Below, one piece after another: positions 24,222-55,897 of a stretch of 64,000 bases of DNA. The stretch is from Escherichia coli. Lineage in GTDB: Bacteria; Pseudomonadota; Gammaproteobacteria; Enterobacterales; Enterobacteriaceae. Location of the stretch: the NCBI RefSeq assembly GCF_003334305.1, contig NZ_QOWS01000007.1; one strand, 5' to 3'. The translations under genes were made by a program, and so were the position numbers. The notes beneath the pieces are model-generated. The model made no database searches. It was given only the letters and a program-made list of their open reading frames with translations, and was not told the origin of the DNA. Every line of letters starts with the position of its first letter. The first letter of the stretch is position 1.

Positions 24222-24242
24222 AAGATGCATTTGAGATACATC
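24222..24242 (+). promoter_or_regulatory. NsrR operator in the hmp promoter
   Basis: aagatgcatttgagatacatc, an AAGATGCATTT...ACATC inverted repeat matching the remembered NsrR site at hmp, about 30 nt upstream of the start codon. Confidence 0.7.
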
Positions 24243-24270
24243 AATTAAGATGCAAAAAAAGGAAGACCAT

Positions 24271-53876: not shown

Positions 53877-54464
53877 GTGACACCGACCCTTTTAAGTGCT
53901 TTTTGGACTTACACCCTGATTACCGCTATGACGCCAGGACCGAACAATATTCTCGCCCTTAGCTCTGCTACGTCGCATGGATTTCGTCAAAGTACCCGCG
54001 TGCTGGCAGGGATGAGTCTGGGATTTTTGATTGTGATGTTACTGTGTGCGGGCATTTCATTTTCACTGGCAGTGATTGACCCGGCAGCGGTACACCTTTT
54101 GAGTTGGGCGGGGGCGGCATATATTGTCTGGCTGGCGTGGAAAATCGCCACCAGCCCAACAAAGGAAGACGGACTTCAGGCAAAACCAATCAGCTTTTGG
54201 GCCAGCTTTGCTTTGCAGTTTGTGAACGTCAAAATCATTTTGTACGGTGTTACGGCACTGTCGACGTTTGTTCTGCCGCAAACACAGGCGCTAAGCTGGG
54301 TAGTTGGCGTCAGCGTTTTGCTGGCGATGATTGGGACGTTTGGCAATGTGTGCTGGGCGCTGGCGGGGCATCTGTTTCAGCGATTGTTTCGCCAGTATGG
54401 TCGCCAGTTAAATATCGTGCTTGCCCTGTTGCTGGTCTATTGCGCGGTACGCATTTTCTATTAA
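53877..54464 (+). CDS. eamB: Cysteine/O-acetylserine efflux protein EamB (YfiK), LysE family, 195 aa
   Basis: ORF track 53877..54464; hydrophobic LysE/RhtB-type protein. Confidence 0.9.
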   Translation: MTPTLLSAFWTYTLITAMTPGPNNILALSSATSHGFRQSTRVLAGMSLGFLIVMLLCAGISFSLAVIDPAAVHLLSWAGAAYIVWLAWKIATSPTKEDGLQAKPISFWASFALQFVNVKIILYGVTALSTFVLPQTQALSWVVGVSVLLAMIGTFGNVCWALAGHLFQRLFRQYGRQLNIVLALLLVYCAVRIFY

Positions 54465-54465
54465 C

Positions 54466-54499
54466 GAAAAAAAGCGGAAGAGGTCGCCCTCTTCCGCTT
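54466..54499. terminator. Bidirectional rho-independent terminator between eamB and grcA
   Basis: A-tract then hairpin aagcggaagagg-tcg-ccctcttccgctt. Confidence 0.8.
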
Positions 54500-54519
54500 A
54501 GTAACTTGCTACTTAAGCC

Positions 54520-54903
54520 TTACAGGCTTTCAGTAAAGGTACGAGCGATAACGTCGCGCTGCTGTTCCGGAGTCAGAGAGTTAAAGCGAACTGCATAACC
54601 GGATACACGGATGGTCAGCTGCGGATATTTTTCCGGATGCTTAACTGCATCTTCCAGAGTTTCACGACGCAGAACGTTAACGTTCAGGTGTTGACCACCT
54701 TCAACGCGAACTTCTGGTTTCACTTCTACTGGAACTTCACGGTATTCAATGTCACCCAGTTTGCTTACTGCAACCACTTCATCTTCTGCATAACCTGCTT
54801 TTGCAACGATGCAACGTGCTTCGCCTTTTTCGCTGTCCAGCAGCCAGAAAGAGTTCAGCAGATCGTCGTTAGCGGCTTTAGTAATCTGGATACCTGTAAT
54901 CAT
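54520..54903 (-). CDS. grcA: Autonomous glycyl radical cofactor GrcA (YfiD), 127 aa
   Basis: ORF track 54520..54921; start set to ATG 54901-54903 ([16 protein letters not shown]...); C-terminal glycyl-radical motif RVSGY. Confidence 0.93.
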
Positions 54904-55010
54904 GTGATGCCTCCCCGGCAAAATTATTTGATTTGTTCAGCCTGTCGCGGCCAATTGGTAAAACCATTGTTGCTTGAGTGTATATATACTCCTCAACCAC
55001 CCTTGATTCT

Positions 55011-55024
55011 TTGATTTAAATCAA
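55011..55024 (-). promoter_or_regulatory. FNR binding site (promoter-proximal) in grcA promoter
   Basis: ttgatttaaatcaa = perfect TTGAT-N4-ATCAA FNR consensus. Confidence 0.8.
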
Positions 55025-55063
55025 TAAAAACCACACATCGATTGTGGTCGTAAATGGATTTTA

Positions 55064-55077
55064 TTGTTTTACATCAA
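55064..55077 (-). promoter_or_regulatory. Second FNR-like site (promoter-distal) in grcA promoter
   Basis: ttgttttacatcaa, near-consensus FNR site centred 53 bp from the first, consistent with the remembered -40.5/-93.5 arrangement. Confidence 0.65.
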
Positions 55078-55207
55078 CTTATGCGGGTGTGAAATTTTAC
55101 CAATTTACATTTTTTTGCACTCGTTTAAGTCTAAAAAATGAGCATGATTTTGTTCTGTAGAAAGAAGCAGTTAAGCTAGGCGGATTGAAGATTCGCAGGA
55201 GAGCGAG

Positions 55208-55897
55208 ATGGCTAACGAATTAACCTGGCATGACGTGCTGGCTGAAGAGAAGCAACAACCTTATTTTCTTAATACCCTTCAGACCGTCGCCAGCGAGCGG
55301 CAGTCCGGCGTCACTATCTATCCACCACAAAAAGATGTCTTTAACGCGTTCCGCTTTACCGAGTTGGGTGACGTTAAAGTGGTGATTCTCGGCCAGGATC
55401 CTTATCACGGACCGGGACAGGCGCATGGTCTGGCATTTTCCGTTCGTCCCGGCATTGCCATTCCTCCGTCATTATTGAATATGTATAAAGAGCTGGAAAA
55501 TACTATTCCGGGCTTCACCCGCCCTAATCATGGCTATCTCGAAAGCTGGGCGCGTCAGGGCGTTCTGCTGCTCAATACTGTGTTGACGGTTCGCGCAGGT
55601 CAGGCGCATTCCCACGCCAGCCTCGGTTGGGAGACGTTTACTGATAAAGTCATCAGCCTGATTAACCAGCACCGCGAAGGCGTGGTGTTTTTGTTGTGGG
55701 GATCACATGCGCAAAAGAAAGGGGCGATTATAGATAAGCAACGCCATCATGTACTGAAAGCACCGCATCCGTCGCCGCTTTCGGCGCATCGTGGATTCTT
55801 TGGCTGCAACCATTTTGTGCTGGCAAATCAGTGGCTGGAACAACGTGGCGAGACGCCGATTGACTGGATGCCAGTATTACCGGCAGAGAGTGAGTAA
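55208..55897 (+). CDS. ung: Uracil-DNA glycosylase Ung, 229 aa
   Basis: ORF track 55208..55897; motifs GQDPYH and HPSPLS. Confidence 0.97.

Follow-up and report, generated by a model that had tools for sequence, protein, structure and literature searches.

Tandem FNR sites in the grcA (yfiD) promoter of Escherichia coli and their conservation in related families

The region analysed here lies in a 64,000-nucleotide stretch of Escherichia coli DNA (hereafter the window) and spans positions 54904-55207. Since grcA has its ATG at 54903 (minus strand) and ung has its own at 55208 (plus strand), this segment corresponds to the entire grcA-ung intergenic region. According to both the open reading frames and the annotation, grcA (= yfiD) occupies positions 54520..54903 (-) and encodes a protein of 127 aa, and its divergent neighbour ung occupies positions 55208..55897 (+). 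A 901-bp query covering positions 54400-55300 matched every one of the 5426 complete E. coli genomes; the top matches were 100% identical, and the underlying annotation names eamB, grcA and ung. The gene order at the locus is srmB / yfiE / eamB / grcA / ung / yfiF / trxC. The locus is thus the grcA (yfiD) promoter on the E. coli chromosome. The initial annotation had proposed that ung shares the region, and this was borne out by the positions of the reading frames, by the annotation and by adjacency in relatives: among the matches listed, ung is divergent from and adjacent to grcA in 41 of 41 testable enteric loci and in 20 of 20 testable loci of Pasteurellaceae. A promoter of ung was not convincingly located, either by eye or by the promoter scan of positions 54400-55300.

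The same 901-bp query found a median of two matching places per E. coli genome. The second place probably falls at the 3' end of either pflB or tdcE, the C-termini of whose products we take to be duplicated in GrcA. The protein itself is an autonomous glycyl-radical cofactor, a spare part that restores pyruvate formate-lyase after cleavage by oxygen.

Downstream of the coding sequence, the terminator scan identified an intrinsic terminator of grcA at 54472..54499 (-), in which seven consecutive T residues follow a 12-bp stem. Upstream of the coding sequence, the Shine-Dalgarno sequence GGGAGG is located at 54910..54915 (-), with GGGAG conserved at 96% in an alignment of 42 species. The A of the grcA AUG is part of an ACA triplet (cACAUG; 54903-54905, minus strand). 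Cleavage of the yfiD mRNA by MazF at such an ACA site, yielding a leaderless mRNA, has been reported. An open-access paper on MazF only names YfiD among the proteins still made after MazF induction.

Two FNR sites and the promoter core

FNR sites were searched for by counting mismatches against TTGAT-N4-ATCAA, with shuffled sequences and control windows serving as the background. The proximal site, FNR I (TTGATTTAAATCAA, 55011..55024, minus strand, centre 55017.5), matches the consensus perfectly, as had been noted from the sequence at first inspection, and is the only exact occurrence in the 64-kb window, against an expectation of 0.14. Given that 14 of 100 dinucleotide shuffles of the window contained at least one perfect site, a lone perfect site could arise by chance; the tandem pair could not. 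The distal site, FNR II (TTGTTTTACATCAA, 55064..55077, minus strand, centre 55070.5), reads TTGATGTAAAACAA on the grcA sense strand and carries one mismatch, located in the promoter-proximal half (AACAA). The second site, which the initial annotation had placed 53 bp away, is found exactly at that distance, measured either start-to-start or centre-to-centre, which amounts to 5.05 helical turns and puts both sites on the same face of the DNA.

Across the window, 7 FNR-like sites with at most one mismatch were observed versus 2.3 expected. Four of these are inside coding sequences (yphF, purL, rseB and patZ), and three are intergenic, namely, the two grcA sites and one upstream of hmpA (TTGAGATACATCAA, 24231-24244, one mismatch), which is situated between hmpA and glyA, with the hmpA ATG (24271) following 27 bp downstream. 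The hmpA site presumably overlaps its promoter and serves in repression, not in activation. It resembles the grcA sites in being an intergenic one-mismatch palindrome and a recognised FNR target, but, unlike them, is a single site; the FNR ChIP-seq paper includes hmp among the predicted FNR sites for which previous work had given evidence that FNR binds.

The -10 hexamer of the grcA promoter, TATATA, is located at 54983..54988 (-), and its TATA (54988-54985) is invariant in 42 species. The scan of positions 54400-55300 for sigma-70 promoters returned no promoter and no -35/-10 pair, an outcome that is to be expected of an activator-dependent promoter devoid of a -35 element and renders the scan uninformative here. 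Among the matches listed, 29 of 42 enterics have TG at -15/-14, that is, an extended -10 element (e.g. loci L005, L014 and L023). E. coli has GA instead of TG at these positions and hence no extended -10 (window 54985-54990), so that its grcA promoter may lean more heavily on FNR.

In FNR-activated class II promoters, the site is centred at about -41.5 (range -40.5 to -42.5), over the -35 region. Judging from the centre of FNR I, its published position of -40.5 and the position of the -10 hexamer, transcription would start at 54976..54977 (-): at 54977 if FNR I is centred at -40.5, or at 54976 if the hexamer spans -12 to -7, in which case FNR I would be at -41.5. The conserved position of the -10 element is compatible with either value. 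Taken with the second site in tandem, the grcA promoter is almost certainly an FNR-dependent class II promoter with an additional FNR site upstream, and none of our results spoke against this reading. The promoter resembles narG, dmsA and nirB, class II promoters with one site near -41.5, in having a consensus site about 41 bp upstream of the presumed start, no usable -35 element and anaerobic activation, and the ChIP-seq table places yfiD among such FNR-activated promoters. The difference is that grcA adds a second FNR site five helical turns upstream, which is reported to lower activation.

Since CRP is a paralogue of FNR that has related sites, and the TGA-N6-TCA core is common to both palindromes, the two sites could in principle be CRP or dual CRP/FNR sites, with the promoter answering to cAMP rather than to oxygen. 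The position that differs between TTGA and GTGA discriminates FNR from CRP sites, and three of the four half-sites start with TTGA, not GTGA. Moreover, FNR ChIP signal has been reported at the locus by both ChIP-seq and ChIP-chip, and published reporter assays show an oxygen-dependent promoter. None of the results obtained here pointed to CRP, and we consider a cAMP-responsive promoter extremely unlikely.

The reading of the two palindromes as FNR sites agrees with a substantial body of literature, to which we owe the reports of FNR occupancy, fnr-dependence, down-regulation by the distal site and repression by PdhR. According to papers that cite Green 1998 and Marshall 2001, yfiD has an activating site, FNR I, at -40.5 and a down-regulating site, FNR II, at -93.5. 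As summarised in a 2024 paper, Green 1998 described FNR at the usual activating position together with an extra site at -93.5, the upstream site down-regulating yfiD even with the activating site occupied; the 2024 paper adds that such an extra upstream site is otherwise seen only in FNR-repressed promoters. According to one review, the alpha C-terminal domain plays no part in the damping by the distal FNR dimer. The FNR ChIP-seq study found a peak at yfiD, with a site at -40.5, and classed the operon as directly activated, and an earlier FNR ChIP-chip study listed the target as yfiD/ung. The promoter described by Green 1998, Marshall 2001 and Wyborn 2002 is the same locus, with 100% identity to E. 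coli genomes, sites 53 bp apart and the PdhR operator downstream.

A 2023 Metabolic Engineering study compared three constructs, yfiD-WT, yfiD-m, in which both key G/C pairs of FNR II were substituted, and yfiD-P1, in which the upstream site was deleted. Under strict anaerobiosis, the reporters yfiD-m and yfiD-P1 were much stronger than yfiD-WT, which was most active when oxygen fell slowly. We mapped the sequences from the supplement of this study onto the window. Primer m095 corresponds to positions 55089-55066 (minus strand) and m096 to positions 54960-54981 (plus strand); m097, used for yfiD-m, turns TTGAT into TTTAT and AACAA into AAAAA within 55064-55077, which is exactly FNR II; and the P1 oligonucleotide begins at 55036, just upstream of FNR I. 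The published FNR sites are therefore these exact bases. The 2023 strain differs from the window by a few base changes between FNR I and the -10 element (agattcaagggtgtttgagg against agaatcaagggtggttgagg), none of which falls in the sites. The published positions (-40.5 and -93.5, 53 bp apart), the identity of the locus and the mapped primers together support the dual-FNR architecture that the initial annotation had attributed to this promoter. By these accounts the sites are not cooperative, as FNR II damps the activation that FNR I provides.

Between the two sites, the terminator scan also picked up a terminator-like hairpin, GACCACA..TGTGGTT (55049-55029), followed by a T-run (55026-55049, minus strand). 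Among the matches listed, its mean z was -1.6 in enterics and -1.0 in vibrios, and it is absent in E. albertii. It was dropped as a candidate part of the promoter, with its stem only partly conserved. A T-rich tract just upstream of FNR I looks conserved in the Enterobacteriaceae alignment and in the Vibrionaceae consensus; it might represent an intrinsic bend or a contact for the alpha-CTD.

The tandem pair in related genomes

To collect orthologous promoters, a degenerate DNA pattern for the GrcA N-terminus was matched against species-representative genomes, which yielded at least 120 loci. Each of the 120 loci among the matches listed codes for a clear GrcA homologue, the families represented being Enterobacteriaceae, Vibrionaceae and Pasteurellaceae. 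For each locus, the 250 bp upstream of the start codon were scanned for sites with at most one mismatch. Among the matches listed, a pair spaced by 52-53 bp was present in 42 of 44 Enterobacteriaceae (the window counted in) and in 36 of 48 Vibrionaceae, that is, in 78 of the 92 orthologous promoters of the two families. No such pair was found in 3935 other 250-bp control windows from the same loci (0/3935) or in 23200 shuffled grcA upstream regions (0/23200). The notion that the FNR sites are functionless chance matches in AT-rich intergenic DNA, which could draw on the perfect sites appearing singly in shuffled windows, is refuted by the conservation of the pair together with the published experiments, and the half-sites also stand out as conserved blocks of the alignment; its probability is practically nil.

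The spacing of the pair is tightly maintained. Among the matches listed, it is 53 bp in 39 of the 42 pair-bearing enterics and 52 bp in the other 3, and it is conserved in 35 of 36 pair-bearing vibrios. In the alignment of 42 species, the blocks with at least 85% identity were the two FNR sites, the TATA, AACAA plus GGTTTTACCAAT, the Shine-Dalgarno sequence and the start of the coding sequence. The FNR I half-sites are ~95-100% conserved among the 42 Enterobacteriaceae species in the matches listed, with the whole site being perfect in 29 of them. The distance from the centre of FNR I to the first T of the -10 hexamer is 29.5 bp in 41 of these 42 enterics, and 37 of them keep the PdhR box at a constant distance from FNR I; the distance from FNR I to the grcA ATG is variable, from 110 to 121 bp, with one case at 159.

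The imperfect half of FNR II is likewise retained, with AACAA kept in 39 of the 42 enterics among the matches listed; in Vibrionaceae, both sites are usually one base from the consensus. A design that included a weaker upstream site would be expected to show such an imperfect FNR II and, judging from this pattern, the distal site may have been kept imperfect by selection.

The position of FNR II between the two genes, with its centre 137.5 bp upstream of the ung ATG, could be taken to mean that the distal site is no brake on grcA at all, and mainly serves the ung promoter or else acts as a class I-type co-activator of grcA. The latter would be in line with a literature summary according to which an FNR-activated melR promoter is still inducible with a second site at many upstream positions. 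Several observations argue against both versions. Anaerobic expression rose when the distal site was mutated or deleted in the 2023 study, the literature calls the site down-regulating, and ung is absent from the FNR ChIP-seq regulon paper. Furthermore, among the matches listed, the distance between grcA and ung in the 31 Vibrionaceae with a divergent ung match is mostly ~1.2 to 1.6 kb (range 332 to 3288 bp). Because 36 of the 48 Vibrionaceae keep the pair even though ung is usually distant, the pair belongs to grcA rather than to ung. We therefore retain the distal site as a brake on grcA and regard service to ung or co-activation as very unlikely.

The 53-bp tandem design is not universal, given that some vibrios and enterics lack a second site and that the layout in Pasteurellaceae differs. 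Among the matches listed, the 250 bp upstream of grcA contained no second site at one mismatch or fewer in 12 of 48 Vibrionaceae and 2 of 44 Enterobacteriaceae. In Pasteurellaceae, 7 of the 21 loci among the matches listed (L002, L035, L045, L062, L090, L119 and L121) carry a pair spaced by 43-44 bp in the 250 bp upstream of grcA, with the perfect site usually being the distal one. The consensus of the 21 Pasteurellaceae upstream regions includes repeated TGTTAA motifs resembling ArcA boxes. Across Enterobacteriaceae and Vibrionaceae, the tandem architecture is deeply conserved; this conservation is established by the present analysis, as are the existence and geometry of the sites and the identity of the locus.

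The PdhR operator and the leader stem-loop

Downstream of the presumed start, a PdhR operator, AATGGTTTTACCAATT in the sense orientation and AATTGGTAAAACCATT on the plus strand, is located at 54953..54968 (-), with its centre at about +17.5, and was recognised by its conservation and its match to the pdh operator. No other block of the region is conserved as strongly: AACAA (54971-54967) and GGTTTTACCAAT (54965-54954) are both 100% conserved in the 42 species. With respect to the dyad ATTGGT-N3-ACCAAT, AATTGGTAAAACCATT has one mismatch compared to the pdh operator AATTGGTaagACCAATT. The latter, in pdhR-aceEF-lpd, extends from +11 to +27 (centre +19), so that the two operators share the same dyad at nearly the same downstream position; the grcA operator differs in having the mismatch in one half, in the addition of FNR control and in the conserved stem-loop that directly follows. 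In the literature, yfiD has been described as repressed by PdhR and enhanced by ArcA, its listed regulators being FNR (+/-), ArcA (+) and PdhR (-). An inverted copy of positions 54953-54963 with 100% identity, AATTGGTAAAA, lies upstream of FNR II at 55095..55105 (-), approximately -118 to -128. This copy of the left half of the operator was found only in Escherichia and some Enterobacter and Lelliottia among the matches listed, and may be a second, weak PdhR half-site.

Per-sequence folding identified a leader stem-loop immediately following the PdhR operator, TTGGCC-gcgaca-GGCTGA (54937..54954, minus strand). Among the matches listed, all 44 enteric sequences form it, with a mean MFE of -9.9 kcal/mol and a mean z of -2.9 versus shuffles, z being below -1.5 in 41 of the 44. 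Tabulation of the pairs revealed G-C, A-T and G-T variants at stem positions and a variable loop length, and this switching of stem pairs together with the changing loop speaks more for a nucleic-acid structure than for a fixed protein operator. When the leader segment was simply aligned with MAFFT, RNAalifold gave no consensus structure, a result that we attribute to misregistered 3' arms in the alignment, and per-sequence folding and pair tabulation were used for this reason. An Rfam search of positions 54400-55400 with E-values up to 1 found no family; the two matches returned, a yeast snoRNA and SorY, were at chance level and far below the gathering scores.

A promoter probably tuned to intermediate oxygen

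The arrangement of the sites suggests how the promoter would respond to oxygen. As oxygen falls, dimers of [4Fe-4S]-FNR would occupy the perfect proximal site, about 41 bp upstream of the start and over the -35 region, where FNR would bring in RNA polymerase and activate it, the promoter having a good -10 element and no usable -35. As strict anaerobiosis sets in and more FNR becomes active, a second dimer would bind the presumably weaker distal site on the same face of the DNA and damp activation. Because the proximal site activates and the distal site is reported to reduce expression, the latter would peak at an intermediate amount of active FNR, that is, under microaerobic conditions, and yfiD has been found to be induced on a shift from anaerobic to microaerobic conditions. 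Such a peak would coincide with the cleavage of pyruvate formate-lyase by oxygen, when the GrcA spare part is needed. PdhR bound to the operator at ~+17.5 would add control by pyruvate, keeping the promoter blocked until pyruvate accumulates.

The dual-FNR promoter of grcA is already known in detail, and finding it here adds no new biology. What may go beyond the earlier literature is the conservation across families of the 53-bp layout and of the imperfect distal site, and the leader stem-loop of enterics. We tentatively put forward, as a possibility somewhat short of even, that the tandem design is an ancient and maintained intermediate-oxygen filter, preserved with 53-bp spacing and an imperfect distal site in Enterobacteriaceae and Vibrionaceae and re-wired to 43 bp in Pasteurellaceae, and that the leader stem-loop (54954-54937) may be an undescribed post-transcriptional or stability element of the grcA mRNA. 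The yfiD promoter is already in use as a metabolic engineering part, as in the 2023 study, and is a textbook case of one transcription factor that both activates and limits the same promoter, such that expression peaks at intermediate oxygen.
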